Shown: piece by piece, positions 2,178-28,825 of the stretch | Layout of the letters: every line of letters starts with the position of its first letter | Numbering within the stretch: position 1 is the stretch's first letter | NCBI RefSeq assembly: GCF_000092105.1 | Contig: NC_014148.1 | Location: 4,920,001-4,952,000 of the forward strand | Direction of reading: 5' to 3' | DNA length: 32,000 nt | Origin: Planctopirus limnophila DSM 3776 | Lineage (GTDB): Bacteria > Planctomycetota > Planctomycetia > Planctomycetales > Planctomycetaceae | Notes under the pieces: model-generated | Databases searched by the model: none | Told to the model about the DNA's origin: nothing | What the model saw: only the letters and a program-made list of their open reading frames with translations | Program-made: the position numbers and the translations under genes

Positions 2178-2471
2178 AGGGAGATCTCCAGTCGATGTCG
2201 GGCAGGGCAAAGAGGTCAATCGGCGGGCCGAACATGGCTGGCTGGGAAAGTTGGGACGCTGCGGGCGGTTCAACTTTCTGGCTGGCGGCCATTAAGACTG
2301 AGATTCAGTCTCAATAGTTAAGCGATTGTAAGCTTGGAGATTCTTTTTGGCAAACCTTGATGTGAAAAAGAGTTTCAGGAGCAAACAATATTTCGCGTAA
2401 CAGATTTCCGCATAAGAAGTTGCAACGCAGGAGACCAGTATGATCAAAAGGAGGGATCTTGCTCGATGCCG

Positions 2472-3017
2472 CTAGGAAAGTGGCCGATTGGCCAGATCGA
2501 GGATGATCAGAGGAACCGCGCGAATCATGAACAGGGCCACCAGAAGGCCGCAGGCAGTCCAGGAGGTGAAGATCGCGCGGAATATGCCTCGGACCTCCTC
2601 CAGCATTGGTGAATAGAGGCCCAGATCAAATTGCAGGCCCCAGTGGTAACGGCGGTTCATCACCCACAAGAAATGCCGCGACACGACATACCAGCTCAGC
2701 AATTCCACCACTTCAAGACTGCGAGGAAACGGCAACCCGCTCCGCACATAACAGAGAACCACGATCACCTGGATCAATCCCATGAGCACCGCCGGGAGAA
2801 GAGAGAGCCCCAGCCAGCCATCGGGCGAAAAGAGACTCTGGAGTTGGAATGGTTTCATCACGAGCACTTTTTTGCAGGTGGGAGTGGGTTTGAGGGTGTT
2901 CATGGACAGCGAGGGGGTATCAAGGTGCGACAGATGAGTTCTGCAAAGGTTGCATATATCGTAGAAGATCGTTCTATGTAACCGGGCCTGAAAGCTGGTG
3001 CATTCCGAAGACTTCAT
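2472..3017 (-). CDS. Hypothetical small membrane protein; start uncertain
   Basis: The ORF starts with ATG at 3017. Alternative ATGs lie at 2903 (MNTLK) and 2858 (MKPFQLQ). Hydrophobic segments include WLGLSLLPAVLMGLIQVIVVLCYV and ACGLLVALFMIRAVPLIILDL. It is on the same strand as the DUF1559 genes and lies between them. I recognise no family. Confidence 0.45.
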   Translation of the reverse strand: MKSSECTSFQARLHRTIFYDICNLCRTHLSHLDTPSLSMNTLKPTPTCKKVLVMKPFQLQSLFSPDGWLGLSLLPAVLMGLIQVIVVLCYVRSGLPFPRSLEVVELLSWYVVSRHFLWVMNRRYHWGLQFDLGLYSPMLEEVRGIFRAIFTSWTACGLLVALFMIRAVPLIILDLANRPLS

Positions 3018-3094
3018 GCACCCTACTTATAGAGTGAGGATTCTGTATAGGTCGTGCGATAACGAGTTGATCGACCTGTCGCTTTGACTTCGCT

Positions 3095-4246
3095 TCAACG
3101 GTTTATATTTTCGTCCGGCGAATCGTTATCTTGAATCGTTGACGATGACTTCAGAACTTGAATTCTTCGCGGTGTGCTCTTTACCTCAACAAGCACGATC
3201 TCCGGATTCTCGACACCGTTGATGTCGATGGACTCCAGATGCGGGGACCGCAGGATCACGCGTATTTCTTCGGCAGTCACTGTGCCTTTGACGATCACCT
3301 GCTTGATACTGGCTTCCAGGCAAAGTTTTTCCAAACTGACTAACCAACCCAGATATGCGGGTTCGTATCGCTTTTCTGGAGGGGAAGTATCACCTGCTGC
3401 CGTCGAGACTGTCAAAGTCTGGCCGTCGATGGATAGCCGAGCGCGCTGATCAGGGTTATTCTTACCATACAAACTACTCCAAAGATGCTTTACATATGGC
3501 TTACTTAAAGGTGGCGGAATCCCAGGTTCGCGGGCCGTCAATTCTGGTGCCGGCCTGAGTGATTCCGGCCCTTGCATGGCGTGCCAGATTGATTCATCAG
3601 CTTCAAGAGTGACCGTTTTGACAGAACCATCACCCATGAGGCCATGCGTGACCTCTCGACCGTGGGAGCTGAAGCCGAATGGAGAAGTGTTTCGAGGTAT
3701 GCTGACTTCGCGCCAGGCAGTCGTTGAAGCAAAAATATCAAACGGCTCGGAAGCATCGGCTGCGAGAAGCGTGTGAGCCGAAGTGCCAAGATCGTCAAGC
3801 GTCACGTGACTATTGCGATGCATGACCCAGGAGTTGGCCGCGACATGAATCAGTGGATAGCCATTGGCGGAGGATGGTGTCTCAAGACTGGGGTCCAGCC
3901 ACGAAATATTCTCCCGGCAATGACGATCTGTAAACCATTCGACCTGCCGGGGATCATCCCAGGGGATATTCTGATCAAGTCGATAGTAGAATGGAGTACA
4001 TGCCAGGTAAGGAATCAAGGGGACGGGCCAGCCAAAATAGCCGTGTCCCTCAGCGTTATAGACACCTCCCGGTGGGAATGTGTCAAATACATCATGATAG
4101 TTATGAAGTGCCAGACCAATCTGCTTGAGGTTATTCCGCCACTGCGTGCGACGAGCCGCTTCTCGGGATTGGTGAATTGCCGGTAGAATCAACATCACAA
4201 CAAGCAGTGGAAAAAGGACTCCTGCGGCAATCTTCAGGTATCTCAT
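3095..4246 (-). CDS. Atypical DUF1559-like protein: membrane anchor without a prepilin cleavage motif, plus a C-terminal extension of about 130 aa of unknown type
   Basis: [61 protein letters not shown] aligns with the DUF1559 N-region of the 1167..2177 product but lacks [11 protein letters not shown]. It retains [11 protein letters not shown] (the DUF1559 DGSV block). It is a paralog of 4311..5417. Confidence 0.8.
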
Positions 4247-4310
4247 GATGTTTCCTAAGCGTCATAGTAATTAGCTTCTAACAGAGATCGTCATGAAGAG
4301 GATGAGTCGC

Positions 4311-5417
4311 TCATTCGGAGGAGTCGGGCGTCTCAATAATTTGGATTCGGTGTGACTCTTGTTCGAGCAGTGGACGAATCACGGGTGCATTTCGAATTGC
4401 ACGAATATCCACGGTCTTCAGGTTCTTGCAGGACAATAGAACCTTCACCTCTTCGGGTGATGGATAGCGATACAACTTTGCCGATTGCACATCCCCTTTT
4501 GCACATAATGCGGCCAATTCAATCAGCCAGGATTGGAAGACTTCCTCTCGCCGTTCACTCAGTAAGCACGGATCAACGGACTCAGTATTGAGAATCAAGT
4601 GTTGACCATCAGCGGTCAGTGTTGCTTTCTGACTGTCCTTGTGAAACATGTCAGTCCAGATGCGGCGGTCAAAGTGAGTTGGAGCTGGGGGGATGCCTGG
4701 GATACGGTCAATAAGTTTATCAACTGGTCTGAGTGACTCTGGCCCTTGCATCTGTTTCCAGATCGATGCGTCGACGTTCACATCGACAGACCGGACGGTC
4801 GCATCGGCCATGAGACAATGAGCCATCGGACGGCCATGTGAGCTGAAACCTGATGGAGAACTGTTGATAGGAATGCTGGCGTCTCTCCAGGCCGTTGTGG
4901 AACCATAAATATCAAATGGTTCCGAAGCATCGGCTGCCAGAAGTGTCGAGGCGAGGTCTCCCACATCTTGTAAGGTCACATGACTATTGCGATGCATGAC
5001 CCAGGAGTTGGCCGCGACATGAATGAGCGGAAACGTATTTTTCTCCGTGAGGGTGAGGCCAGGGTCTTGCCACCAACGTCCTTCCCGGCAATGGGCCATT
5101 GTAAACCATTCGATTTGCCGGGGATCATCCCAGGGGATTCGATCATCAACCCAAGACGAAAAGGGAGTCTGCGTTTGAAATTGCGCCAGACGGCTAGGCC
5201 ATCCCTGATAACCTTGCCCTGCTTCACTAAAGATTCCACCAGGTGGCAGGCAATTGTAAACATCATGGTAGTTATGGAGTGCCAGGCCAATCTCTTTCAG
5301 CCGGTACATCCAGTCTGATCGCCGGGCCTGTTCTCGCCCATTGAGAACTGCGGCACTTAAGAGTGTCAGCACAACGACCGTGAGAACGAGCCCAACAGCA
5401 ATTTTCAGGATGTTCAT
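4311..5417 (-). CDS. Atypical DUF1559-like protein, tandem paralog of 3095..4246
   Basis: [61 protein letters not shown]. It shares [20 protein letters not shown] and [13 protein letters not shown] exactly with the neighbour. The DGSV block has changed to MADATV. The C-terminal extension is homologous to the neighbour's. Confidence 0.8.
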
Positions 5418-5508
5418 GATGTCATCTCACGTTCGGGCTGCAGACCACGAAACCAGCAGTTTCAATAGATGCCGGGTGTTCATGGTCGGATTGCAGCTAC
5501 GATTGAGA

Positions 5509-6939
5509 CTACACCTTGAGTTCTTCTGCCGCCAGACCGAGTGTGCTTTGATAGCGCTGGCGGATGAGGGTGATGATCTCGGAAACAAATTGCTCGACCT
5601 GTTCCGGTGCACGACCTACAAATCGCCGGGCATCGAGTGCAGCACCCAGATCGACCTTGGCAAAGGCGGCATCACCCTTGAGTCGCTCGATGAGGTCGTT
5701 GGGTAAGCCGTGCTCTTTGACCTGTCGAGCGGCTTCATGACTGTGAATGCGGACGCGCTCGTGGAGATCCTGCCGGTCGCCACCGGCACGCACACCTTCC
5801 ATCAGAATCTCTTCGGTCGCCATGAATGGCAACTCGGCAGCGAGTCTTTGGGTAATCACCTTCGGGTAAACCACCAGCCCATCCACCACGTTCCGATAAA
5901 GAATCAGGATGGCATCGGTCGCGAGAAATGCCTGTGGAATGGAGAGCCGCCGGACGGCACTGTCGTCGAGAGTTCGTTCCATCCACTGCGTAGCGACTGT
6001 CTGGCCGATGGAAGCCGTGACGCTGGAGACAAACCGCGACAGGCTGCACATTCGCTCAGACCGCATGGGGTTGCGCTTGTAGGCCATGGCCGATGAACCG
6101 ATCTGCTGCTTCTCGAACGGCTCTTCGATCTCTTTGTTGCTTTGCAGAATGCGCAGATCGGTCCCTGTCTTGTGGGCACTCTGGGCAATGCCATCGAGAA
6201 CATCGAGAATCTGCACATCGAGCTTGCGGGTATAGGTCTGGCCAGTCACGGCGCAGCGCTGGGCAAAGCCCATCTTTTCGGCCACCCGGCGATCGAGTTC
6301 TTCCACCTTGGCGTGATCGCCGTTGAACAACGTGAGGAATGTCGCCTGAGTCCCGGTGGTGCCTTTCGCACCGCGGAACCTCAGGTTTTCGATGCGATGT
6401 TCCAGATCTTCCAGATCGAGCACCAGATCGTAACACCAGAGTGTGGCTCTCTTTCCCACCGTTGTCGGCTGGGCAGGCTGCAAATGGGTGTACCCCAAGC
6501 AGGGGAGGTCTTTGTATTCGACAGCAAACTTCGACAGCCGGTCGATGGTGGCGACGAGTTTATCGCGCAGCAGTTCCATCCCTTGCCGCATGAGAATGAG
6601 GTCGGCGTTGTCGGTGACATAGCAACTGGTGGCCCCCAGGTGAATGATGGGCCGGGCTGAGGGACATTGATCACCCCAGGCGTGGACGTGAGCCATGACA
6701 TCGTGCCGCAGTTCCTTCTCGTAGCGGGCGGCGGCAGCGAAATCGATATCTTCGAGGCGAGACTTGAGTTCATCGATCTGACTTTGCGAAACCGGCAGAC
6801 CCAGTTCGTGTTCGGCTTCCGCCAGCGCCACCCACAGTTTGCGCCAGGTGGCGTGCCGCACCTGCGGCGACCAGAGGGCACTCATGGCTTTGGAGGCGTA
6901 GCGGGAAACGAGTGGGTTGTCGTAATGTTCGTGAGACAC
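5509..6939 (-). CDS. purB: Adenylosuccinate lyase
   Basis: 476 aa. The N-terminus is [19 protein letters not shown]..., and the fumarate-lyase signature [14 protein letters not shown] is present. The GTG start at 6939 has GGAG 6 nt upstream. Confidence 0.95.
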
Positions 6940-7142
6940 GGAAAACTCCGGTTGAAAGGCCTGTTGCGGGCTACGGGAACCCGAACAAACCGAATGTCAG
7001 AAACCATGAAGTCAGGAAAATTCTTGCCCGAATATGGCACGGGCGTCTGCATGCGTTACGATGGAACTACTTTAACAGGTCGGCGAGACGTTGCCGACTC
7101 ATCCCGTCGTCTTACGCTCTCATTCGGAAACAGGCCCTGCTC

Positions 7143-8183
7143 ATGCCGACACCTCTTGAAACCCTCGTTGCCTGCGGCACCAAAGTCTGGCTCGACAGTA
7201 TCGATCCCGCACTGGTCGTAGAAAACCGCAAATTTGGAGCCACGGGTGCCACATCGAATCCAATTATCATTGCTGACCTGCTGAAGACGGGTCGCTTTGA
7301 TGATCAGATTCGCGCGTTGGTGGCCGAAGGGCATTCCGATGAAGCGATTGCCTGGGCGATGACCGATCGTCTTGTCCGCCAGGCACAGGAAGTTTTTGCC
7401 AGCGTTTACACAGAATCTGCGGGCAATAACGGCTACGTGAGCTTTGAACTCGATCCTCTCCTGGAAGATACCGCGAACACGTTGAGTGTGGCTGAAAAGG
7501 CCAAGAAGTATGTCGAGCTGGGTCAGCATTGGGCGGCAGGGCATTCCAACCGCATGATCAAGGTCCCCGCGACACCGGGTGGATTAGCTGCTCTCGAAGA
7601 GCTGGCCGCTTCCGGGATTACGCTGAATGTGACGCTGATCTTCTCGGAACGGCAGTATGAAGCGGCTCGGGAAGCGGTTTGGAAGGGTGCCCAGCGGCAC
7701 GGCAAGCTTGAACGCTTCAAATCGGTTTACAGCATCTTCGTCAGTCGGATTGATGTCTATACCAAGAAGCACGTTCCCACATTGATCCCTGCGGCTCAGG
7801 GTCAGGTCGGCATTGTGAATGCCCAAAGGCTCTGGGCAGAGAATCAGAAGTTCTGGGCCGACAAGAAGCTCCCACTTCAGCAGGAAATCATCTTCGCCAG
7901 CACAGGCACAAAAGACCCGGCAGAAGCTCCTGATCGTTATGTGAGTGCACTGGCTGGTTCCGATATCCAGACCAACCCACCTGCGACGAACGCGGCTGTC
8001 CAGAGCCTGACAGGTAAGGTTTACACCCGCAAAGTCGATCAATTGCCACCAGCCGACGTTCTGGCCGATATCGATGCAAAAGTCGATTTCGCCAAGATGG
8101 AACAAGTGCTGATGGAAGAAGGTCTGGCCAAGTTCGCCGATCCATTCAAGTCACTTCTTCAGGTGATCGCTTCCAAGCGCTAG
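7143..8183 (+). CDS. tal: Transaldolase
   Basis: The track ORF begins at GTG 6912. ATG 7143 gives [43 protein letters not shown]..., [40 protein letters not shown]. These are typical transaldolase blocks. Confidence 0.9.
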
Positions 8184-8246
8184 TGCCGAAGTGTCTCTCG
8201 GCATGAGGTTTGGTAGCGATTTGCCAGACTGATGCAGGAGAAGAAT

Positions 8247-8858
8247 ATGCAACGAACAACATTTCTTATGAGACACAAACTGGTCGCGCTTCGGCCCGGT
8301 TTGTGTCTCAGTCTATTCACTGGGTTGGCGATTTGCTGTTTTAACCCGGCATTTGCTGAACCACCCGTTGCTGGAACCAGTGGCCAAGTGGCTCAGCAGC
8401 CACAGGATGGCGAGGTTCCCGCGGATGCCGAGCGGATTTTGGGTGAGTGGGTGCCGGTGGAGTTTATCTTTCTGGGCCTGCCGGTCCCGATGGAGAATAT
8501 TGCCGGGCTAAAGGTGGTGTTTGAAAAGGAAGAGCTGAAGCTCTATCCCCCCGCACCTGTTCGCAAGCTGAAAGAAGGGGAGCTGCCACCACCCGCCCCG
8601 ACTCCCATCAAATTCCGTTACCAGCTCTTAACAGATCGTGAGCCGCACCAGATCGAACTGACGGCGGAAGAAGGCCCGCAACAGGGACAAACAACAGGTT
8701 CGATTTACCAGTTTGATGAAAAAGGCCGCCTCGTCATTTGTGGTCATCTTGACCCTGCTGCCCCTCGGCCGGATGTCTTTGAATCGACCGATACGTCGCG
8801 CACGATTCTTTTCAAGTTCGAGCAGCATGTGAAGCCTGCTTCAACTCCAGAGAAATGA
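8247..8858 (+). CDS. Secreted protein with a planctomycete TIGR03067-like domain
   Basis: ATG 8247 has AGGAG 6 nt upstream; an alternative ATG is at 8232. The signal peptide is MQRTTFLMRHKLVALRPGLCLSLFTGLAICCFNPAFA. The pattern ILGEWVPVE...LKVVFEKEELKLY...PHQIELT...GSIYQFDEKGRLVIC...RPDVFES...ILFKFEQ fits the TIGR03067 layout as I remember it. Confidence 0.65.
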   Translation: MQRTTFLMRHKLVALRPGLCLSLFTGLAICCFNPAFAEPPVAGTSGQVAQQPQDGEVPADAERILGEWVPVEFIFLGLPVPMENIAGLKVVFEKEELKLYPPAPVRKLKEGELPPPAPTPIKFRYQLLTDREPHQIELTAEEGPQQGQTTGSIYQFDEKGRLVICGHLDPAAPRPDVFESTDTSRTILFKFEQHVKPASTPEK

Positions 8859-8859
8859 A

Positions 8860-9351
8860 TCATTGCCGAGTTTCGACAAGTATATCGATCAGTGATTGCA
8901 AGCCGGTCGCATCGAGTTGATTGAAGCGCTCGAATTGTGGGCTGTCGATGTCGAGGACTCCGAGGAGCTTCTGGCCAGAACAGATTGGCAGAACAATCTC
9001 GGAGTTCGAGGCGGAATCGCAGGCGATGTGCCCCGGGAATTGGTGAACATTGGGGACGATCTGCACAGCGAGGGTTTGTGCTGCAGTGCCGCAGACACCC
9101 TTACCGACGGGAATGCGGACACAGGCCGGGCGACCCTGGAATGGCCCGAGCACCAGTTCATTTCCCTGCAGAAAGTAAAAGCCCGCCCAGTTGATTTGGG
9201 GCAGGTTGTGATAAAGCAGGGCGGCACAGTTGGCGGTGTTGGCAATCCAGTCGGGTTCATCTTGGGTGATGGCGCGCAAATGCTGCTGCAACAGAGCGTA
9301 AAGCTCGGTGGGGCCTAAAGAGTGCGAATCGGTGAGGGACGTTTCGTGCAT
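8860..9351 (-). CDS. msrC: GAF-domain free methionine-(R)-sulfoxide reductase (YebR/MsrC family)
   Basis: 163 aa. WIANTANCAALLYHNLPQINWAGFYFLQGNELVLGPFQGRPACVRIPVGKGVCGTAA...GHIACDSASNSEIVLPI...GVLDIDSP matches the fRMsr/GAF_2 pattern, including the conserved Cys residues. Confidence 0.85.
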   Translation of the reverse strand: MHETSLTDSHSLGPTELYALLQQHLRAITQDEPDWIANTANCAALLYHNLPQINWAGFYFLQGNELVLGPFQGRPACVRIPVGKGVCGTAAQTLAVQIVPNVHQFPGHIACDSASNSEIVLPICSGQKLLGVLDIDSPQFERFNQLDATGLQSLIDILVETRQ

Positions 9352-9490
9352 TCGTTGTGATTATCTACGGATGATCGGTCGTGAATTGGAACAGTGTCCC
9401 CTTGAAGACATGCTCGCTCAGAGCCGCGAGGCATGGCACAGAGCCCTCGGGGAGCATGGCACATCAGGTTTTGTTGTGTGCTGGTCAACT

Positions 9491-12053: not shown

Positions 12054-12872
12054 TTAGAAGCCGAATCCACCGCCAAATCCACCGAATCCACCACCGCCGA
12101 ATCCGCCGCCACCAAATCCTCCACCACCAAACCCACCACCGTTACCAAACTGGTCGTTGCCAAAGTTCTGATAAACGTTCTGGTAGAATTCGGGAGCGGC
12201 TTCCAGCGAATGCTTGCCAGGGCCGTAAGAAGTGGCAACAAAAGTGCGGTTATATGCGTCTGGGTTGCCCAGATCGGTCAGAATTTGAGCCACGAGCTGC
12301 CGGCGATGGTTATCGAGTTCTGGATCAGCGTTGTGCATCGTCCGTTCCACAAGAACCGGGAAGGGTGCACTGCGCATTCTCGATGCGATTTCGAGGATTT
12401 TGTCTTTGCCGTCGGGTGTCAGTTCGGCACTTTCTCCCACAAAGTCACTGTAGTACAGAATGAAATCTGCTGCTTCGGCATTGGTTTCCATCTGGTGGAA
12501 GTGGGCTCGATGCACGGTTCCTAAGGCGTATTGCTCTGGTGTCGTGTTTCGATTGGCTGAATGACCCCACCAGGACGAGGCACCCGAGCAGAAGCTGCCA
12601 CATTTCGTCCCGCAGCTATTGCACGAGTTGCAGTCATTACACGATTTTTTCCAGCCCCATTTGTTCCCGCCACAGGGCTGAACACCACAGGTTGGATCGT
12701 AGGGCGAATTGTTGCAGCCACCTGTTGGGCAGGCACCCGTTTCGCAAGAACCCGTCTGGCAGCCCGCCGGGCCACAATCAGTTGATTTATGGCCAAACGA
12801 GATGCAGCCTGCAGCAATCAGCGGCAATGCGACGAGGCAGCGACTCAGATAAATGTGGAAGGAGCGGAGCAT
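12054..12872 (-). CDS. Lipoprotein with a Cys-rich N-region, a central OmpA_C-like (degenerate) domain and a C-terminal GGF-repeat tail
   Basis: MLRSFHIYLSRCLVALPLIAAGC has a lipobox (IAAG|C). The next ~75 aa contain 15 further Cys (CGPAGCQTGSCETGACPTGGC...CNDCNSCNSCGTKCGSFC). The central block ADFILYYSDFVGESAELTPDGKDKILEIASRMRSAPFPVLVERT...RRQLVAQILTDLG loosely follows the OmpA-like pattern. The tail is GNGGGFGGGGFGGGGFGGGGFGGFGGGFGF. The ATG is preceded by GGGGAGAAGGG. Confidence 0.8.
   Translation of the reverse strand: MLRSFHIYLSRCLVALPLIAAGCISFGHKSTDCGPAGCQTGSCETGACPTGGCNNSPYDPTCGVQPCGGNKWGWKKSCNDCNSCNSCGTKCGSFCSGASSWWGHSANRNTTPEQYALGTVHRAHFHQMETNAEAADFILYYSDFVGESAELTPDGKDKILEIASRMRSAPFPVLVERTMHNADPELDNHRRQLVAQILTDLGNPDAYNRTFVATSYGPGKHSLEAAPEFYQNVYQNFGNDQFGNGGGFGGGGFGGGGFGGGGFGGFGGGFGF
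12057..12143. repeat. Imperfect short tandem repeat encoding the GGF tail
   Basis: Iterated aatccaccaccgcc-like 12-15-nt units (gaagccgaatccaccgccaaatccaccgaatccaccaccgccgaatccgccgccaccaaatcctccaccaccaaaccc...). Confidence 0.7.
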
Positions 12873-13086
12873 CCCTTCTCCCCTAACGAGACTGGCGCAG
12901 GGACAGTCTTTCGGATATTTCTGGCAGATTGTTCAGCAATCAATCGTCGCAGGTGCGATCAATGCCCAACTGCCTTCTTCGTCAACCTTGACTTGATGGC
13001 TGTCTGTTCTCGGAGGCAGAACAGACCCGGTATGTACTAGTAAGTAGCCGGACGATGTGTCTGGCACCTCAAGCTCTTCTGTACGA

Positions 13087-15459
13087 CTATCGACGACCTG
13101 CACCACTTCCTGCGGAACTTGCTGACGGAGCGGAATAACCGCCACGACCATAAGGATTTCCGGGTTGCCCGGCAGTTTCTGCCTGTTGCATCCCTGTCTG
13201 CTGGATTTGTGATGAGGGTTGATTCCCGGGATAGCGGCTGCCAGGAGTGTAGCCTGACCGGTTTCCTTGAGAACCATTATTGTTTGAAGAGATTGGTGTC
13301 GGCATCAGTGGCGTGCTGGGCCGGGGTTGAGCCGGGCCGGGTGTTGGTGGATAAGCGTGCTGTGGGACAGAGTAGCCACCTGGAGCCGGCTGGATTCCCT
13401 GATTTGGCCCACCTTGATTCATTCCTCCCGGCTGTGGTCCGACAGGCTGTGGCCCATAGGAGGGGCTGGCTGGCCCGGGATTGAAGTGCTGATAACCCAC
13501 ATTTGTCCCATTACTGCCAGAACCATAAGGTGGTACCTGATAATGTCCCGTATCAGGAGTGCCTTCGATGCGGTTGTACCAGAAGAACTCGTGATCGCCT
13601 GGATAAGTGACTTCGAAGCCCGGAACAGGAGGCACTTCTTCGGGATCCATGGGTCGCACAATGTCGGGAGTAATCAGAATGAGCAGTTCGTTTTCGTCCT
13701 GAGTTTTCTCTTTGCGACTGAAGAGAGCTGGTCCAATCTTTGGGATATCTCCCAGGAAGGGAATCTTCGAGATGTTGGTCTTCATCAGGTGAGAATACAG
13801 ACCAGCCAGCGCGAGAGTCTGACCTTCGCGCATTTCGACAGTGGTATCAATGCGGCGGGCGTTGGTACCGGGAATCCCTTGGACCGAGTTCGCCTGGTTC
13901 AGATCACTGTATTCCGCGATGGTCGACAAGCGGATGAGATCGCGATCCAGAACTGTGGGTGTGACGAGCACTGATGTCCCGAAACCACGGAAAGTCGTGG
14001 ACTGACCTTGTGCACCGGCAATACCGATAATCGTGGGAACAGCAAATTCACCACCAGCCAGAAAACGGGCCTGGCGACCACTGAGAACAGTTAAACGTGG
14101 TTCCACCAGTATCTTGCCGATGCCGTTCGTCTTGAGCCAATCGAGCAGAATCGAGACGTCGCCGTTATCGAAGATACCACCCAGCGTCGCGGCCCCGCCC
14201 GTTAGTGACGATTCAATTAACTGGCTGCCATTAAAGAGTACGGAGATATCGGCCCCGGCTTTAAACATTTCTGAACGGTTCAGTTCGGCGATACGAACTG
14301 TGAGGCTCACCTGGAACTCACCTGGAACTCGCAGCTCATTGATAATGAAACCAGCTGCGAGGTCGGAGGCTCCACCGAAACTGTTACCAATTCCACCGAT
14401 GGCACCGTTATCGATCGTGCTGGATCCACCACCGAGATCACCGCCAAGACCGCCCAGGAAAGGTTGTGGGCCGCCCAGTGAACCTTCCTGATTGATGACT
14501 TCACCGCGCACGATACTCAGAATGTGAGCGGCTTCTTCCGCATCGCGGGCTTGTCCGCGGACGACAATCTTGTATGACATGGGGATGAGGTAAACCTTGC
14601 TGTTGGGGAACAAGGTCTGCAGTTTCTTTTCGAGCTTGCCATAATCGAGACGGCGCTGGAAATCGAGAGCTGGATCGCGAATGACTTTCACGAGATAAAT
14701 GAGTGGTTCGGCGGCACCTTCAAACCAGAGGGTAAGAGTTGTCGTTCCTCGAGAAACACCAATAATGGAAATTTCTCGGGGGCCGTATTGCACGACATCG
14801 ATCACGTTCGGGTCGGCAATGGCCGCACGAATGACGTTGGCACGAGTGACGATCAACTGGCTGCGGCGATGAATCACTTCGAGGTCTTCTTCGGAAGACG
14901 GCATCGATTCAATCAGCCGGTGGAGTTGCCGGGCCGTATCCGACTGGTTGGAGTCCTGTACTGTGCGAACTGGCACGGCCCGCTGTGGCAACGGTAATGC
15001 ATTGACAGCAGGGACGGGTTGATACTGGACAGGTTGGATGTTGCCACGCGGAATCTGGATTTCACCATTCCGACTGGCAGGCACCTGATACTGCGTATTA
15101 ACGACGGGATATCCATACCCGGCGGGTGACTGCGGATGGGACGGAGTTTGCCCTGGTTGTCTCTGGTCCTGATAGCCCTGAGCTTCAGGGGCATACCCGG
15201 CTGGTGCCATCTGCTGCTGAGAATAGGAAGCAGAATGCCCGCCATAATTTTGAGCGAGGCAGGTGCTCGTCCCTACAAGACAAAGCAGCAATGCCTGAAT
15301 TCCTTGCCGGAGCGAATCGTGCCATGTGAGGCGCAAGAGACCGCTGTCGGTTTTATGACCATCGCGATACAGCTCTGCCCGCGTCGGCTTGTAAACGGTC
15401 AACATCCGTGTTGCTCCTGCTCGCTTCGAAAGCATCCTTGCCTTGAAGCAGACATTCAC
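13087..15459 (-). CDS. Outer-membrane secretin, CpaC/RcpA-like (type II/III secretion system family), with Y/Q/P/G-rich N- and C-terminal extensions
   Basis: The secretin domain reads LVEPRLTVLSGRQARFLAGGEFAVPT...GIPGTNARRIDTTVEMREGQTLALAGL...IPFLGDIPKIGPALFS...NELLILITPDIVRPM. The CpaC-type N-terminal block is VIHRRSQLIVTRANVIRAAIADPNVIDVVQYGPREISIIGVSRGTTTLTLWF. The track ORF starts at GTG 15459. More likely starts are ATG 15435, ATG 15405 (GGAG 8 nt upstream) or TTG 15336. The signal peptide is ...GIQALLLCLVGTSTCLAQ. Confidence 0.9.
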   Translation of the reverse strand: MNVCFKARMLSKRAGATRMLTVYKPTRAELYRDGHKTDSGLLRLTWHDSLRQGIQALLLCLVGTSTCLAQNYGGHSASYSQQQMAPAGYAPEAQGYQDQRQPGQTPSHPQSPAGYGYPVVNTQYQVPASRNGEIQIPRGNIQPVQYQPVPAVNALPLPQRAVPVRTVQDSNQSDTARQLHRLIESMPSSEEDLEVIHRRSQLIVTRANVIRAAIADPNVIDVVQYGPREISIIGVSRGTTTLTLWFEGAAEPLIYLVKVIRDPALDFQRRLDYGKLEKKLQTLFPNSKVYLIPMSYKIVVRGQARDAEEAAHILSIVRGEVINQEGSLGGPQPFLGGLGGDLGGGSSTIDNGAIGGIGNSFGGASDLAAGFIINELRVPGEFQVSLTVRIAELNRSEMFKAGADISVLFNGSQLIESSLTGGAATLGGIFDNGDVSILLDWLKTNGIGKILVEPRLTVLSGRQARFLAGGEFAVPTIIGIAGAQGQSTTFRGFGTSVLVTPTVLDRDLIRLSTIAEYSDLNQANSVQGIPGTNARRIDTTVEMREGQTLALAGLYSHLMKTNISKIPFLGDIPKIGPALFSRKEKTQDENELLILITPDIVRPMDPEEVPPVPGFEVTYPGDHEFFWYNRIEGTPDTGHYQVPPYGSGSNGTNVGYQHFNPGPASPSYGPQPVGPQPGGMNQGGPNQGIQPAPGGYSVPQHAYPPTPGPAQPRPSTPLMPTPISSNNNGSQGNRSGYTPGSRYPGNQPSSQIQQTGMQQAETAGQPGNPYGRGGYSAPSASSAGSGAGRR

Positions 15460-15769
15460 CTTACCTCGGCAAGAAAAGCTCTTACATTTTCCGCAGTTGA
15501 GAATCTGGTCAGAAATGACCAGAAGGAACTCAGCCTGCTGAAGGAAAATGTATTCGCCTTGTGTCGGGTTTGCCTGAGATATCGTTAGTCAATGTGAGTG
15601 CAGACTCTGGGGAGACGCTCTCACCGTATCATCATGTATCGGCGGTAGAATTCTGATGCCATCAAGCGAAGTGAGTCATGTTCCTCAGTTGCTTTTGTCG
15701 TAACGGAAAGAGGCGACATAATTGAAAAAGTTCCCGCAAGCCCCCTGTATTGCCCAGGGGCCATGAGTT

Positions 15770-15806
15770 TCACCTCCCACAAGCAATAACTGCCTGTGGG
15801 AGGTGA
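15770..15806 (-). terminator. Strong hairpin downstream of the 15868..16551 gene (possible terminator, no U-tract)
   Basis: tcacctcccaca (15770-15781) pairs with tgtgggaggtga (15795-15806): a 12-bp perfect stem with a 13-nt loop, 62 nt after the stop. Confidence 0.4.
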
Positions 15807-15867
15807 TTTAGAACTTTGCAGGTCGATGATTCAGGATGCTGAGGCATCTTCTGCCGGAGTCATCTGC

Positions 15868-16551
15868 TTACCACGCGTAATTTGTATCCCGGTTGTAGAC
15901 TGCTCGACCGGGGTAGTACCAGGGAGCCCGGTAGGAGTAGTAAGGGAACCGATAGTGACCATGCACCTGATTGCGATGAAACCCGGGGCCGAAGTGGTCA
16001 ACGTAGGGATCGCCGGAAATTGTAGATCGCTCGTTTCCATCGTAATAGTAGGGTGAGCCGATTCTGGCGTCGTAACCACCTGGCTGGAAATACTTGGCCC
16101 CCGAGGCATAGCCTGACTGATAAGTGGGGCCAGGCAACGCCGGGCTGGGCAGTCTGCCTTGAACCTGACCGTTAGGTGCAAGACCATACGGTGTCGCATA
16201 GGGCGATAGATTGACGTTTGCCCCGTAGCCAGCCATGGTTCCCTGGCCTGTCAGGTAGGGCTGGCTGCCCATTACCGAGGGATCAACGGGCTGGGGACCG
16301 TAGGTATAAGGAGCAATTCCAGTGGGCGTGGGTTGAGCCACAGCCGGACCATTCATCGTGGAGTCATAGGCGGCTGGTGGATTGATCGACACTCCTGCGC
16401 CCGATTGAGGATAGTAATAAGGTGTCGTTCCAGCGGCTCCACCCGAGAAGCCGAAACCATAGTTGGACCAGGAAGCTCCAGGAGCATCCTGAGCCTCCAC
16501 GGTTGTGAGGTTGCCCAGGAGCGTTGCTCCCAGTACGACACCCAGCTTCAT
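15868..16551 (-). CDS. Secreted Tyr/Pro/Gly-rich low-complexity protein (hypothetical)
   Basis: The track ORF extends to 16764. ATG 16551 gives a clean signal peptide, MKLGVVLGATLLGNLTTVEAQ. The rest is Y/P/G-rich (TPYYYPQSG, YTYGPQPVDPSVMGSQPYL). The C-terminal aromatic block is HFGPGFHRNQVHGHYRFPYYSYRAPWYYPGRAVYNRDTNYAW. Confidence 0.65.
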   Translation of the reverse strand: MKLGVVLGATLLGNLTTVEAQDAPGASWSNYGFGFSGGAAGTTPYYYPQSGAGVSINPPAAYDSTMNGPAVAQPTPTGIAPYTYGPQPVDPSVMGSQPYLTGQGTMAGYGANVNLSPYATPYGLAPNGQVQGRLPSPALPGPTYQSGYASGAKYFQPGGYDARIGSPYYYDGNERSTISGDPYVDHFGPGFHRNQVHGHYRFPYYSYRAPWYYPGRAVYNRDTNYAW

Positions 16552-17039
16552 GGTGGTTTTCCACAACTGGGCTGCCAGCGAAAACTCTTGAGGCGCTTTG
16601 GCTTGTGAGGAATCAGCAGGCAATGCGATCCCCCGGGCCTGGCAAAACATCGTGATCGGGGCAAGCTTCCAGGGAGTCTGCGGCATGTTAAACCTCAATG
16701 ACCGTGACGAAAAAGACGGCCTGCGGACGAACCGTCGAAGGATCTCTGATTTCTGACGAGGCAACTATGAATCACAACTGCCACATCTGCCGACGATACC
16801 TCACAAGTTGTGATATTTTCCTGCAGTTCAGATGTCCTCTGCTCCTCATGGAAAGATCACGAAAGAAAGTGCGCATTGGCAAATTTTGCCGACAAACACT
16901 CCCACAGCGAATCTAACTGCAGAATGAGTGAGAATTGGTGAAGGATCACTGATTGCTGGCTGGCTGCGGTTTCTGACCAGGATGGATCTGGTTGGCCGAC
17001 AGGTTGAAACAACCTTTCACACAGGCAGGAAGCATTGTT

Positions 17040-17768
17040 ATGTCGGGCATTATTGTTCAAGTCGCCCTGGCGGCGGTCATGCAGGTTGGTCAACCAGCTC
17101 CTCAGGAAACTCCGGGGATTCCTGTCATACCACAGGCTTATCAGCAGTATGGCTTTGGAGGCCAGGCCGAAACGCGCCATCCTTACGACACTCAACAGAA
17201 CTGGGTGCATGGCTACTTTCAGGAAATTCCTGCCTATCGCGGTCACGCACTGTTTCGACCTTACAACTATAAGCATGTGTTGTCCCAGTCGCAGACAGCT
17301 GGTGGCTGGGGAATGAATCCGAATCTGGCTTACTCTCAGCAGTTCTGGCATCGTTACCAGGATCAGGCCACCATGCTGAAGATGTCCCAGACGGGACCAC
17401 AGGGTCTACCCAATACAGGGCCGTTCCCGGGATATGTGGTCTCGCCCATGCCACCTGTGGATGGTTCGCTGTATCCTGTCTCGTATGCACCGGAGTATTC
17501 GCCACAGGGTGGGTATGCCCCGGCAGCTCCCTATCAATATCAGTCTGCTCCGGCAGTGCAGATGGCACCGGCACCTGCTGGTTATCCAGTCATGGGCTCT
17601 CAACCACCTGCTGGTGCCCCGGTGACTTATTATGAACTTCAGGAGCATCTGGGTTCGCCAGTTGTGCCTGCCGGGAGCTATGCCCCTGCTCCGTCGAATC
17701 CAGCCAACAGCGGGCTTATTCCAGCCAACAGTGGGCCGATGCTTCCTTTACCACCGCCCGGCCGCTGA
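17040..17768 (+). CDS. Tyr/Pro/Gln-rich low-complexity protein, probably exported (hypothetical)
   Basis: The track ORF starts at TTG 16992. ATG 17040 has GGAAG 8 nt upstream. The hydrophobic N-terminus is (MADRLKQPFTQAGSIV)MSGIIVQVALAAVMQ. The aromatic block is WVHGYFQEIPAYRGHALFRPYNYKHV, followed by low complexity such as GGYAPAAPYQYQSAPAVQMAPAPAGYPVMGSQPPAG. Confidence 0.65.
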   Translation: MSGIIVQVALAAVMQVGQPAPQETPGIPVIPQAYQQYGFGGQAETRHPYDTQQNWVHGYFQEIPAYRGHALFRPYNYKHVLSQSQTAGGWGMNPNLAYSQQFWHRYQDQATMLKMSQTGPQGLPNTGPFPGYVVSPMPPVDGSLYPVSYAPEYSPQGGYAPAAPYQYQSAPAVQMAPAPAGYPVMGSQPPAGAPVTYYELQEHLGSPVVPAGSYAPAPSNPANSGLIPANSGPMLPLPPPGR

Positions 17769-17799
17769 TGCCTTCTGTTGAATAACGCAGTCGATTGCA

Positions 17800-17838
17800 A
17801 GCCATCTGGTGAACGTGAGCCGGGTGGCTTTTTTGTTT
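17800..17838 (+). terminator. Rho-independent terminator of the 17040..17768 gene
   Basis: agccatctgg (17800-17809) pairs with ccgggtggct (17820-17829): 10 bp including two G-U pairs, with a 10-nt loop. It is followed by tttttgttt. Confidence 0.75.
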
Positions 17839-18100
17839 ATTGAGGTCGACTGGTATGGTGTTCGCTGGTGGCCGGAGATCAAGAGCATACTGCGATGAAA
17901 TCGCTGGTGAATGGCTCGATCAATACGTTCGGACTCGCCCTCATCCCGGCCTTCTCCCGTCGGAACGGGAGAAGAGGTAAAAACCCCTCGCCCGCGTCTG
18001 CGTGGGAGAGAGGGTCGCCGCAGGGTGGGTCGTGAGTTTCTTCCTCTGGCCGACGTGAGCATTCTCAAAGTTTGACAGAAGTCGAAAGTGCTTATCAAAG

Positions 18101-20818: not shown

Positions 20819-21415
20819 ATGTCGATTCTCGACCGCTCCACATTTTTCATCAAAGAGCATGTGGGCATGATGAAACTTGTCGATCGCTACGATATTCACG
20901 ATCCCGACACCAACGAAAAAATTGGCTTCGTCGAAGAACAGCCGGGGCAGCTTGTGACTTACCTCAGGCTGCTGGTGAATAAACAGCTCATGCCTACGAC
21001 GATTGTCGTGAGTGATCTTACAGACAACAGCGTGCTCTTTATCATTCACCGTGGGGTGTCGTTGTTCCGCCCTAAAGTGACTGTCAAAAGCCCGCAAGGT
21101 GAAATGATTGGTTACTTCCGGGCCAAGCTCTTTTCACTGGGGGGTGGCTTTTTACTCTTCGATGCGAACGATCAGCAGGTCGGCGATGTCAAAGGGGATT
21201 GGAAAGGCTGGAATTTCAAACTGCTCAGTACCTCAGGCGAAGAGCTGGGGACTGTCACCAAAAAATGGGCTGGCATGGCCAAGGAAATCTTTACCTCGGC
21301 AGATAACTACATCGTCGCACTCAGCCCCACGATTCAATCCAATCGCAGCCTCGCCACCTTACTGCTGGCAGCCGGCCTGGCGATCGATACGGTCTTCAAA
21401 GAGAGCAAAAATTAG
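20819..21415 (+). CDS. Phospholipid scramblase family protein (PF03803-like)
   Basis: GTVTKKWAGMAKEIFTSADNYIVALSP and the C-terminal hydrophobic ATLLLAAGLAIDTVFKE align with the eukaryotic scramblase blocks [26 protein letters not shown] and AVMIGACFLIDFMFFE, as I recall them. Confidence 0.8.
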   Translation: MSILDRSTFFIKEHVGMMKLVDRYDIHDPDTNEKIGFVEEQPGQLVTYLRLLVNKQLMPTTIVVSDLTDNSVLFIIHRGVSLFRPKVTVKSPQGEMIGYFRAKLFSLGGGFLLFDANDQQVGDVKGDWKGWNFKLLSTSGEELGTVTKKWAGMAKEIFTSADNYIVALSPTIQSNRSLATLLLAAGLAIDTVFKESKN

Positions 21416-22117: not shown

Positions 22118-25100
22118 TTATGGCGTGAAGGGATCGCCTGGCGAAGCATTGAAGTTTCTGGGGAAACCAGCATTCGGGAAGATCCCATCGTTGGCTGTCG
22201 GAGTGAATGCTCCGGCACCATCGAGATTGGTTCCCACCGCTTGCGGAATACCCAGGCTGATAAAGTTGTTGTTCGCATTGATATCGGCTGCTGAACCTTC
22301 CATCTGGAAGAGCTGTGCAAACCGTGTGGTGTTCGGTCCCAGCAGGAATTCCGGTGCGTATGTGGCAAATCCAGTCCCTGCGTTGATGCTGTTCCCCGTG
22401 TTATTGAAGAACCGCAGATCCATCTGGGCCGTATCATCCAGGAAGATTCGATCCAGAGCTGGACTGCCCGCCGCCGTCGAAGCGGGTTTCGCAATCACGT
22501 TGCCAGCCGCATCTGTCTTACGGAAGGATGCCGTGCGGAAGTCGGACTGGCGGTTACCAGTAAAGGTGTTCCCCTGGCCAGAACCGACGGCACCGCCGAT
22601 ATCAGCGACCACGAGCGAATCGGTACTGACGTTGATGAACAAGCCATCGCCATCAACACCACTCTGTCCGTTAAACCGAACGGTGTTGCTGAAGAAGTTA
22701 AATGTCGTGACCGCACTGGATGTCACATCCATGTAATTGCTGTAGGACCCAATCGCTGCATTCGCACCAATTGGCAGGTTAGCTGCCGAGTTCCCTGTGG
22801 CCCGTGCACCAGCCGATGCCGCAAAGAACGCGGCAGGGTTAAACGGTGTAGCAACAGGTGCTGTCGGTTGTGGCAGATCGACATCGAAGAAGCGGTATCC
22901 GTTGACGTTGTTAAAGGCTGCAGTATCTGTTCCGGCATTGCTGTTGAGGAACACACCATGGCGACCACTCCGCTCGATGGTATTGCCATCAAACGTGAAA
23001 CTGTTCGCGGTATTACCAAAGATGTCGATGTTCACCCCATTCAGGCCGCTATCCTGAATGATGGAGTCTTCGACAACCGCAATCATGATGGATGAGCCTG
23101 CCGATTTGCTGTTCGAACCCGTGTTCTGCAGGTTGAGCCCGTTGCCCGCGTTACCGGTAATCAGTGTATTCACCATCTGCAGACCATTGCTGCCGGTGGT
23201 ATCAAACTCGAATCCATCCCCGCCGTTGTTCTGAATTGTGGTATTCACACCCACAGCACCCACCGAGACAGAGCTTGTGCCACCGCCAACGATGGAAATC
23301 CCGTTGCCACCGTTGGGACGACCAACAATTGCGTTTGGCCCCGTGGGCAGTGCACCTGTACCACCAATCAACGTATCGTTCACGTTGAGAATGATCGTAT
23401 CGCCCTGCAACAGGCCGCTGATACCGTCACCCACGTTGCTTTCGATCACTGTCTGGTTACCGGCGAGCAAGCCATCGCCCACCACGTTAATGTTGGCAAT
23501 TCCTGTTCCAGTGGCTCCCACAGGATCTACAGAGCCTGCGACAATCGCGATGCCGTCATCGCCATTGCCACGGATTGTCGATTGACCCGTCACCGAGTTG
23601 ATTTCGGCGAGAATCTGCGAACCGACACCCAACCCATCCAGAGCATTGAACTGGATGCCGTCACCCGTGTTCTGCTGGACCGTGATGTTATCGAATGTCG
23701 AGCGAATTGCACCGGCAATATCGCCAAAGCCCGAGGCACTGTCTGTCGTGACCGAGATACCGTTGGCCGTGTTCTGGTTGAAGGTGCTGGTCAGCAGATT
23801 CGTCAGGAGGACTGCATCGGCATCACCATTGGTCTCCAGACCGTTCCCCGTGTTCAGGTTGACCTGGGTATTCGAAATGGTGAGGAAGTTCGCCGAGTTC
23901 GGGTTGGCAGCCAGGAAGTTCGTCGAAAGTGGCTGGTTAGGATCGGAAGGATCGCTACCCGTGTAGTTGAACCGAATACCGTCATTCCCGTTGTTCGAGA
24001 AGGTCGACAACCGGGTGTTCGCAGTATTCGAATCGGTGATCGAAACTTCCATCAGCGAAGCATCGGCACGATTGATCTGCATACCGTTGCCGGCATTGTT
24101 CGTCGCGGCCACCTGATCAAAGAAGCCGTTGACTTTGCCATTGATCGTCGAGCCCAGCACGATGCCGTTGGCATTGTTCTGGAGTGTGGATTGGTTCCCC
24201 ACAGGGAGAGGTGCCACGTTGAAATCAGGATCATCCGGGCTGGCAATTCCCACTGTCAGGAAGGAGTTGTCAGCAGCACTGCCATCCAGACCGTCCCCGG
24301 TATTCTGGCTGCTGGTGAGATTGTTGAACTGAGCCGTCACAATCGAGTTTTGTGTGAGTGCGAGATTTACACCATCGCCAGTGTTACCACCCAGGATGGC
24401 ATTACCAGTAATGTCTCGATTGCTCTCGAAATTCATCCGGCCATCATCGCTACCCTGAATCGCAATCCCTGCGACTGTGTTCTGGATGGCAATATTGTCG
24501 AACGACGAAACCTGCATGATCGGCGCACCGGCGTCGCCGTCGGTCGCATACAGGAAGCCGTTCTGGTTGGCTGAAGCGTTGTTCCCAGTCACGATGATCG
24601 GATTCGCCAGCGTTCCCACGGTGGCAGTGCCATCCTGGGTGATCGCGAAGCCATTCGCATTGCCGGAAGCATCGTTGTTGATGACCGTCGCAGCCAGAAC
24701 TGTCGTCCCGGCAGCTTCCAGCAACATGCCCGAATCTTCGTTCCCTGTGAACTGGTTGCGTGCCACAGTCGGATCAGCAGACCCGATAATCAGGTTGGCA
24801 GCACCGTTGAGTCCTTCAAAGTGCAGACCGTTCGAATCGGTACCGACGACACCGTCTGTGTTATTCGCAAACGTGTTGGCGAAGATGTTCGCATCAAGAT
24901 TCCCGCCGGCAGCTGTGATCTCCAGGGCCAGGCCGTCGCCATTGTTCTGCGAGAAGACGTTATCAGTAATCGCGAAGCCACTGGCTGGATTATTGAAGTT
25001 GATGTCGCCGCCATTGGCAGTCAGTACGAAGCCGTCATCTCCGTTACGAGAGGCTCCAATGGTACTGTTTCCAGAGATCACGCCTTGCAGTTGGCCACCA

Positions 25101-28654: not shown

Positions 28655-28825
28655 CAATCATCCTCGCTGGCTGAGTCTCGAATGAGCATTCTCTTTTCGT
28701 GAGGCAGAAGTCGGTCAACGGGCCGCTCGCTGTGTTTTCTGCAGTCGATCTCGAAAGTGGCAAAACTTTTCGTGTGGAAATGAATCAACACCTAAAAATT
28801 GTTGACCAGTGCTGTTTGAGCCAGA

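Follow-up and report, generated by a model that had tools for sequence, protein, structure and literature searches.

A CpaC/RcpA-type secretin strictly paired with a lipoprotein in Planctopirus limnophila and its relatives, a candidate outer-membrane module of a Tad-type pilus machine

The stretch of DNA analyzed here (the window, 32 kb in length) comes from Planctopirus limnophila DSM 3776 and carries a gene for a secretin, Plim_3839, followed directly by a gene for a lipoprotein, Plim_3838. The two lie in a module of four genes, Plim_3838 to Plim_3841, whose other members encode Tyr/Pro-rich secreted proteins. Our main subject is the secretin–lipoprotein pair, which is conserved across relatives and which may form the outer-membrane module of a Tad-type pilus machine. 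The initial annotation of this DNA had placed four open reading frames (ORFs) here, and all four were confirmed at its coordinates. The ORF at 12054–12872 matches ADG69650 exactly and is Plim_3838, and the divergent ORF at 17040 is Plim_3841 (ADG69653), likewise by exact sequence look-up. The secretin is Plim_3839, and its protein cluster includes ADG69651. The ORF between the secretin and Plim_3841 was taken as Plim_3840, with no exact look-up match when its start is set at 16551. A literature search by locus tag returned no mention of Plim_3838 to Plim_3841, and the ADG, WP, and UniProt accessions of the module proteins were absent from the main texts in the literature searched. The sole trace is ADG69651.1, which is listed as "CpaC" among the proteomics-identified proteins of P. 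limnophila (PMC5394234 Suppl. Table 2). The lipoprotein and the secretin have the following features:

12054..12872, minus strand: lipoprotein Plim_3838, 272 residues, with a lipobox signal (Cys23), a Cys-rich region, a conserved domain, and a Gly/Phe tail (exact match to ADG69650)
12057..12167, minus strand: Gly/Phe-rich C-terminal tail of the lipoprotein (GGGFGGGGF..., last residue F; composition across homologues)
12168..12542, minus strand: conserved domain of the lipoprotein, residues ∼111–235 (invariant columns, AlphaFold2 (AF2), Foldseek, hhalign)
13087..15405, minus strand: secretin Plim_3839, 772 residues (Pfam, orthologue start MLTVYK, RcpA match)
13090..13434, minus strand: variable Pro/Gly/Ser/Gln-rich C-terminal tail of the secretin (composition across homologues)
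13435..13653, minus strand: family-specific conserved C-terminal extension of the secretin (dense invariant columns)
13654..14352, minus strand: Secretin (pore-forming) domain (PF00263, E 7.6e-37)
14353..14484, minus strand: Gly-rich insert at the junction of the N-terminal ring domain and the secretin domain (gap versus Azospirillum CpaC)
14683..14889, minus strand: T2SS-T3SS_pil_N domain of the secretin (PF13629, E 7.6e-14)
14965..15405, minus strand: signal peptide and Pro/Gln/Ala/Gly-rich N-terminal region of the secretin (homologue alignment)

The initial annotation had recognized CpaC/RcpA N-terminal and secretin C-terminal blocks in Plim_3839, and a Pfam search bears this out, with T2SS-T3SS_pil_N matched at residues 191–259 and Secretin at residues 442–602. 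The search found these two domains only, with no N0/Secretin_N repeats and no AMIN domains, and the architecture (PF13629 plus PF00263) is that of the CpaC/RcpA type. Both domains are present in all 120 homologues listed, the best of more than 1100 relatives, which are 52–96% identical to Plim_3839 and 600–790 residues long. The ORF does run over 13087–15459 as first drawn, but the start that would give 790 residues is not the likely one; translation most likely begins at 15405 and yields 772 residues, as in ADG69651 and the orthologues. When a profile of the secretin was searched against the PDB, the closest solved structure was the Tad secretin RcpA (8odn, E 2e-42), compared with best E values of 1.6e-25 for GspD and 5e-19 for PilQ. 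Over residues 179–588 the secretin is 28% identical to an Azospirillum CpaC, which we took from a canonical Flp-CpaA-CpaB-CpaC-CpaD-CpaE-CpaF-TadB-TadC locus, and several of the listed plasmid matches whose surroundings were inspected lie in cpa/tad loci. The pil_N domain holds many invariant residues in 26 homologues and is among the most conserved parts of the secretin, as would be expected of a domain that docks on a conserved periplasmic partner.

These comparisons bear on whether the secretin could serve a type IV filament machine other than the Flp/Tad pilus, for example a type II secretion system (T2SS)- or type IVa pilus (T4aP)-like system for the DUF1559/N_methyl pseudopilin-like proteins, of which planctomycetes have very many, a reading that we judge unlikely. 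Its attraction lies in the surroundings. Three DUF1559 genes stand in tandem at window 1167–5417 (minus strand), 7–11 kb from the module, the first with an N_methyl prepilin-type motif, and they are of the T2SS/T4aP type, not the Flp type. GspE/PilB-type ATPases occur within 10 kb in 2 of the 80 related loci described below, and the orthologue from Planctopirus ephydatiae is called "putative type II secretion system protein D" in one source. Among planctomycetes, however, the pseudopilin-like DUF1559 family is typical, and its proximity means little because DUF1559 genes are present in 12 other contigs that we fetched. The secretin is also without the N0/Secretin_N and AMIN domains, RcpA is ahead of every other solved relative by 17 orders of magnitude in E value, and the NCBIfam models for GspD, PilQ, MshL, and SctC match the secretin domain alone with scores far under their cutoffs (102 bits versus 351 for GspD, TIGR02517; 90 versus 284 for PilQ, TIGR02515). 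Other secretins are, moreover, available for other systems of this organism, because the same proteome table lists a GspD of its own (ADG69500) along with two further secretin homologues (PMC5394234).

Compared with the Azospirillum CpaC, Plim_3839 has ∼130 extra N-terminal residues, a 44-residue Gly-rich insert, and ∼185 extra C-terminal residues. The initial annotation had noted Tyr/Gln/Pro/Gly-rich extensions at both ends that canonical CpaC lacks, which holds, but it had taken the C-terminal one to be low-complexity throughout, which does not: the first ∼70 of its ∼190 residues (603–675) form a dense invariant block in 26 homologues, beyond the end of the canonical CpaC alignment, with the consensus EVPPVPGFEVT..PDTGYYQ.PPYGSGS.GTNVGYQHFNPGPA..Y.P.PT. 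The Gly-rich insert, which had gone unmentioned, occurs family-wide at 40–67 residues and 34% Gly. The N-terminal region is likewise found across the family, with a median of 94 residues ahead of the conserved core, a composition rich in P (17%) and Q (14%) as well as A and G, and a variable sequence. The final tail, counted after FNPGPA, has a median length of 111 residues (range 92–187; P 21%, G 12%, S 11%) and ends in Arg-Tyr in 53 of 77 homologues; the window protein ends in RR instead. In the N-terminal region, the insert, and the tail, the sequence varies while presence, length, and composition persist family-wide.

The lipoprotein belongs to a family of 446 proteins. Its lipobox, ...LIAAG/C, has G22 invariant and C23 conserved in at least 90% of 40 homologues. 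A Cys-rich stretch (median 10.5 Cys) lies ahead of a 125-residue domain that holds most of the 29 invariant columns of the whole protein, and the Gly/Phe tail is 26–70 residues long; in 103 homologues the last 35 residues are 64% Gly and 14% Phe, and 46 end in F. Neither Pfam nor NCBIfam gave matches to the lipoprotein or to either Tyr/Pro-rich neighbor, and none of the 120 lipoprotein family members listed has a precomputed Pfam domain. With no family match in 40 members, the lipoprotein does not belong by sequence to either the CpaD family or Pfam OmpA, and the lack of any match to the tetratricopeptide repeat (TPR) sets it apart from the TadD/PilW/Tgl-type TPR pilotins. The AF2 model of the lipoprotein has an overall predicted local distance difference test (pLDDT) of 58, with block means of ∼72–95 over residues ∼131–220, and its confident core has the element order β-α-β-α-β. 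The top Foldseek matches in the PDB are OmpA-C-like 9uu2, MotY 2zf8, TagL 4b62, and OmpA 4rha. In hhalign the domain aligns with Pal/OmpA in the same register (E 0.047), and its invariant Arg pair, R190 and R191, aligns with the ERRA motif of Pal. From the model and these alignments, the conserved domain probably has an OmpA-like fold and may bind peptidoglycan. A search of the PDB with the lipoprotein profile returned Gly-linker matches only, and an hhalign comparison of CpaD with Pal was uninformative, both profiles being shallow.

Conservation of the neighborhood was followed in a scan with one genome per species, which gave 324 loci; the best 80, each from a different genome, were analyzed. 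These are labelled Planctomycetaceae, Planctomycetales, Planctomycetota, or unclassified bacterium and include Planctopirus, Schlesneria, Gimesia, Planctomicrobium, Thalassoglobus, and Maioricimonas. By tblastn and profile searches, the lipoprotein gene is directly 3' of the secretin gene in 76 of the 76 loci with room for it, and in the remaining 4 the contig edge comes right after the secretin. The gap between the two genes has a median of 87 nt, the pair occurs once per genome among these loci, and two independent gene calls, reached from the lipoprotein side, show the same pair. Both Tyr/Pro-rich genes are present together in ∼46 of the 80 loci, always upstream, with one on the secretin strand and one divergent (the 15868 gene was detected in 36–38 loci by tblastn and in 47 by a profile search whose alignment includes some antisense ORFs). 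Elsewhere the two are jointly absent, including at least 15 loci with the full 10 kb upstream, where housekeeping genes stand instead. No other gene family is common to more than ∼16 loci; a ∼736-residue TPR protein with weak PilW/Tgl/PrsT-like matches lies on the same strand 3' of the lipoprotein in only ∼13, including Gimesia metagenome-assembled genomes (e.g., L051 13263–15473), and is reminiscent of the TPR pilotin TadD. Since the secretin and the lipoprotein alone are universal, the core comprises two genes, not four: the universal unit is secretin plus lipoprotein, joined in part of the family by a two-gene accessory set. The earlier suggestion that the four genes encode one envelope structure thus stands as far as a conserved unit is concerned, the flanking genes being syntenic with the secretin in relatives, but not as a four-gene core, because the Tyr/Pro-rich genes are found in ∼46 loci.

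The same data speak to the view that there is no functional module and that the four genes are neighbors by chance, their likeness being one of shared composition, which we regard as scarcely credible. The pairing in all 76 loci extends across genera in which the secretins are 45–60% identical and the other flanking genes differ, and the Tyr/Pro-rich genes are jointly present or absent at a fixed position and orientation; for the secretin–lipoprotein pair, chance association is excluded. The view draws its support from the short peptides and from the Tyr/Pro-rich proteins themselves. YGPQPV and VMGSQP, pointed out in the initial annotation as common to module proteins, are indeed shared, but only in the Planctopirus loci (L001–L003) and not as a conserved motif. 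Shared k-mers in the low-complexity parts are modestly above composition-preserving shuffles (P 0.013, 0.016, and 0.065 for k = 4, 5, and 6), and judged by sequence the shared hexapeptides reflect common composition and not a conserved motif. Homology between the two Tyr/Pro-rich proteins is likewise unsupported (BLASTP E at least 0.6; hhalign E 0.14 over 12 columns).

On one metagenome contig (L167 8915–16720), the pair adjoins a peptidoglycan/division gene cluster on the opposite strand. Its Pfam matches are Glyco_tran_28_C, FTSW_RODA_SPOVE, Glycos_transf_4, and two Mur_ligase, and the genes are probably murG, ftsW, mraY, murF, and murE.

The two accessory genes and the features around them are as follows:

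15868..16551, minus strand: secreted Tyr/Pro/Gly-rich protein, taken as Plim_3840, 227 residues from MKLGVV (upstream of the secretin, same strand)
15871–16104, minus strand: conserved C-terminal segment of the 15868 product (homologue alignment)
16992..17768, plus strand: secreted Tyr/Pro/Gln-rich Plim_3841, annotated start 17040 (divergent transcription; synteny)
17160–17396, plus strand: conserved segment of Plim_3841 (invariant columns)
17799..17840, plus strand: terminator-like hairpin and T-run 3' of Plim_3841 (12-bp stem with 6 GC pairs, then TTTTGTTT; a consensus match only)

The neighbors of the secretin had been described as exported, low-complexity proteins. The export signals are there, but none of the three is merely low-complexity, since each has a conserved segment: residues 111–235 of the lipoprotein, the last ∼80 residues of the 15868 product, and residues 57–135 of the 17040 product. 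The 15868 product begins with a Sec-type signal, MKLGVVLGATLLGNLTTVEA/QD, and its last 50–90 residues are aromatic-rich and conserved, with the C-terminal consensus ..DPY.DHFGPGFHRN..HGHYRFPYYSYRAPWYYPGRAVYNRDTNYAW; nearly all of 111 representative relatives match at the C-terminus. This segment and the conserved block of the secretin (13435–13653) have an HF[NG]PG motif in common, with a marginal hhalign E of 0.015 over 39 columns, which we take as a lead only. The 17040 product has a hydrophobic N-terminus, and its homologues have an Arg-rich N-region upstream of this, which makes the TTG at 16992 a possible true start. It has 291 homologues, and none of the 120 listed carries a Pfam domain. 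Most of its 36 invariant columns fall in the ∼80-residue segment at 57–135, whose consensus is ..NWVHGYFQEIPAY.GH..FRPYNYK..SQSQTA.GWG....YSQQFWHRY.DQATMLK. An AF2 run with 40 homologues gave no fold (pLDDT 50); because the segment is conserved and yet gives no fold, the modelling suggests that it is ordered only on a partner. Plim_3841 also has an invariant Q-V-G-x-P-x-P-x-E-x-P in 40 homologues (window 17082–17114; residues 31–41 counted from the 16992 start), which follows the hydrophobic core of the signal peptide and is unusually strict for a cleavage region.

The absence of a Tad/Flp partner near the secretin, noted in the initial annotation, is borne out across the entire window: none of the main ORFs, all of which were scanned with Pfam and NCBIfam, matched CpaA/B/D/E/F, TadB/C, or TadD, and tblastn with the full Azospirillum cpa set including Flp returned the secretin only. 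The orthologues do not sit in complete tad/cpa operons either (0 of 80 loci), and a regex search for Flp pilins over all loci found nothing. Being an "orphan" is a property of the whole secretin family. It is weak evidence for a non-Tad function because TadE-TadE-TadG triads also stand alone. TadE, TadE, and TadG-like genes lie just upstream of the pair in one locus (L052) and TadE lies 6 kb away in another (L009), with TadE/TadG nearby in no other locus. A metagenome scan with the L052 TadG showed the TadE-TadE-TadG(VWA) triad to be conserved in ∼25 contigs (L087–L130, e.g., L087 8763–11830), of which 4 carry DUF1559 genes and none has a secretin, CpaF, or TadB/C within 10 kb. This shows that these bacteria do have genes of the Tad type, which are scattered as well. 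In other planctomycete families, Flp, TadA/B/C/E/V/Z, RcpC, and RcpA have been reported (PMC7397252, PMC11279305).

Two further gene arrangements were seen during these searches. Peat-metagenome contigs (L157–L159, ∼4070–9360) carry CpaB-CpaE-CpaF-TadB-TadC but lack a secretin, both in the interval from CpaB to CpaE and in the 20 kb as a whole. Alphaproteobacterial plasmids carry CpaC-type secretins in S. meliloti (L081 6806–9060), Pelagibacterium (L083 2187–4263), and Paracoccus (L086 805–2422), with no CpaE/CpaF/TadBC in the 3–7 kb inspected, although a TadG-related gene lies ∼1 kb downstream of the L086 secretin; CpaC genes that stand alone thus occur outside the planctomycetes too. Like Plim_3839, these plasmid secretins have a small downstream gene and/or a neighboring TPR gene, but unlike it they are of ordinary length (450–470 residues), are without extensions, and have other partners.

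We see an even chance that Plim_3839 and Plim_3838 are the outer-membrane module of a Tad-type pilus machine whose partner genes are scattered. The CpaC/RcpA-type secretin multimer would form the outer-membrane channel of a Tad-type (type IVc) pilus. The lipoprotein would be lipid-anchored in the inner leaflet of the outer membrane, would surround or dock on the secretin, and would tie it to the cell wall via the probable OmpA-like domain, a role also proposed for CpaD of Caulobacter; extra links may come from its Cys-rich region. The genes for the inner-membrane and cytoplasmic parts (CpaF/TadA, TadB/C, CpaB, CpaE, the prepilin peptidase, the Flp pilin, and TadE/F/G) would lie in other parts of the genome, an arrangement usual among planctomycetes. 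The lipoprotein or both small secreted proteins likely dock on the conserved C-terminal extension of the secretin, and the Gly-rich insert and Pro/Gln-rich tails would be further lineage-specific additions. In the part of the family that has them, the products of the 15868 and 17040 genes probably attach to this complex via their conserved segments, which would not fold alone. Domain architecture, strict pairing, conserved extra segments, the lack of Tad partners in the neighborhood, and the presence of the secretin in the proteome are observed; around them we infer the physical contacts, the binding to peptidoglycan, a connection with a Tad inner-membrane machine, and what the fiber is.

The parallel that this assignment leans on is Caulobacter CpaD, a 225-residue outer-membrane lipoprotein encoded directly 3' of cpaC, predicted to be OmpA-like, and essential; it is modelled as a ring around CpaC, and the authors of that work describe CpaC–CpaD as the outer-membrane module of the Tad machine (PMC13170226). 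In both systems the gene for a CpaC-type secretin (pil_N plus Secretin) is followed by that for a ∼225–270-residue lipoprotein with a predicted OmpA-like fold, and in both the pair is proposed as an outer-membrane complex anchored to peptidoglycan. Unlike its Caulobacter counterpart, the planctomycete pair lies outside any cpa operon in all 80 loci and is often syntenic with two extra secreted proteins; Plim_3838 has no detectable sequence similarity to CpaD and carries a Cys-rich head and a Gly/Phe tail; and Plim_3839 has its ∼130 extra N-terminal residues, the Gly-rich insert, and ∼185 extra C-terminal residues that include the conserved 70-residue block. Pseudomonas aeruginosa RcpA–TadD (8odn, PMC10499894) is similar in that RcpA has the nearest solved secretin domain and that a lipoprotein partner assists the secretin. 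Unlike TadD, Plim_3838 is not a TPR protein (one is found in only ∼13 loci), and the 426-residue RcpA chain in 8odn leaves no room for the long tails or the C-terminal extension of Plim_3839. TagL of the type VI secretion system, MotY of the flagellar motor, and TsaP of the T4aP secretin tie a machine to peptidoglycan, the role that we propose for Plim_3838, whose best fold matches include the OmpA-like domains of TagL and MotY. TsaP uses LysM and not an OmpA-like domain, and all three belong to other machines and other domain contexts, none with a Cys-rich head or a Gly/Phe tail. We found no described counterpart for the conserved C-terminal block and Gly-rich insert of the secretin, for the Cys-rich head or Gly/Phe tail of the lipoprotein, or for the two accessory proteins.

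Several results weigh against placing the pair in a Tad machine. None of the 80 loci has CpaA/B/D/E/F, TadB/C, TadD, or Flp within 10 kb. The adjacency of TadE-TadE-TadG to the pair in L052 is discounted as a Tad link: the triad stands alone in its relatives with a secretin never adjacent, ∼2 chance cases are expected per 80 loci, and the adjacency is therefore best taken as chance. Canonical CpaC has neither the ∼130-residue N-terminal region nor the Gly-rich insert nor the ∼185-residue C-terminal region of Plim_3839, and we know of no Tad system with counterparts of both Tyr/Pro-rich proteins. As to the lipoprotein, a Pfam scan of 40 homologues at E values up to 10 gave Gly-rich noise only, with no OmpA (PF00691), CpaD, or TPR. 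The Foldseek matches are weak (E 0.03–0.4, probability 0.54–0.96, target-normalized template modelling score 0.21–0.47), and hhalign of the domain with two annotated CpaD proteins gave E 0.21 in a noncorresponding register, from a shallow profile. Finally, the GHADE loop, in which the Asp that contacts peptidoglycan in Pal-type domains sits, is deleted in the lipoprotein–Pal alignment.

Some of these points would also fit an autonomous, planctomycete-specific outer-membrane complex, made of a secretin ring, the lipoprotein, and, where present, the secreted proteins, that does not use a Tad inner-membrane machine. Such a complex could be the core of the crateriform structure, anchoring or extruding fibers or admitting macromolecules, with the Gly-rich, Gly/Phe, and Pro/Gln tails as a disordered collar or plug. 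We hold this possibility to be rather unlikely but serious. Tad partners are absent family-wide in the 80 loci, the family-specific additions are large and conserved in length and composition, two family-restricted secreted proteins are syntenic in ∼46 loci, and the secretin is detected by proteomics. Crateriform structures of P. limnophila have 12- and 6-nm fibers emerging from them (PMC5394234), and a 2025 review still describes the players in planctomycete fibers, crateriform structures, and macromolecule uptake as unknown (PMC12673574). On the other side, little weight falls on the missing synteny, given that TadE/TadG genes are dispersed as well, and the conserved periplasmic pil_N domain argues for a periplasmic partner. 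Secretins are the outer-membrane part of trans-envelope machines (type IV filament systems, the type III secretion system, filamentous phage), and, to the best of our knowledge, none acts alone. Both Tyr/Pro-rich genes are missing from the locus in ∼40% of genomes, and localization of the secretin to crateriform structures is only hypothetical.

A related proposal is that the secretin and lipoprotein, with the aromatic-rich proteins where present, are the outer-membrane core of the planctomycetal crateriform structure, the long-known pits from which fibers emerge. We think this unlikely. Were it so, an unusually large collar would be built from the conserved C-terminal block together with the disordered segments (Gly-rich, Gly/Phe-rich, and Pro/Gln-rich). 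One candidate would be the small polar crateriform structures with 6-nm stalk fibers, whose width is near that of the ∼5.5 nm Caulobacter Tad pilus.

The conserved secretin–lipoprotein pair offers a concrete knockout and localization target for the crateriform and fiber question, and targeted gene deletion has already been made in P. limnophila (PMC5394234). The assignment to a Tad-type machine would extend the recently proposed CpaC–CpaD type of outer-membrane module to a distant phylum, in which the lipoprotein would have diverged beyond sequence recognition and the secretin would have gained large conserved and disordered additions. Even if the module is an ordinary Tad secretin with scattered partners, this corrects its reading as an orphan and gives three hypothetical-protein families a place in an envelope machine.

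Outside the module, a promoter and terminator scan of the window was at background level except for the one hairpin after Plim_3841, and an Rfam scan of the window gave no matches. Besides the three DUF1559 proteins, the gene products encoded around the module are adenylosuccinate lyase, transaldolase, a GAF protein, DUF420, a membrane protein, dienelactone hydrolase, a leucine-rich repeat protein, a scramblase-family protein, a 1567-residue β-helix protein, a glycoside hydrolase family 10 (GH10) enzyme, SAICAR synthetase, and a histidine kinase. The scramblase-family protein (198 residues, window 20819–21415, plus strand) matches PF03803 with E 1e-14, in a family that is mainly eukaryotic. 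The 1567-residue protein (window 22118–26821, minus strand) has a right-handed β-helix as its sole Pfam match, and the GH10-like glycoside hydrolase comes next after it, at window 27182–28657.

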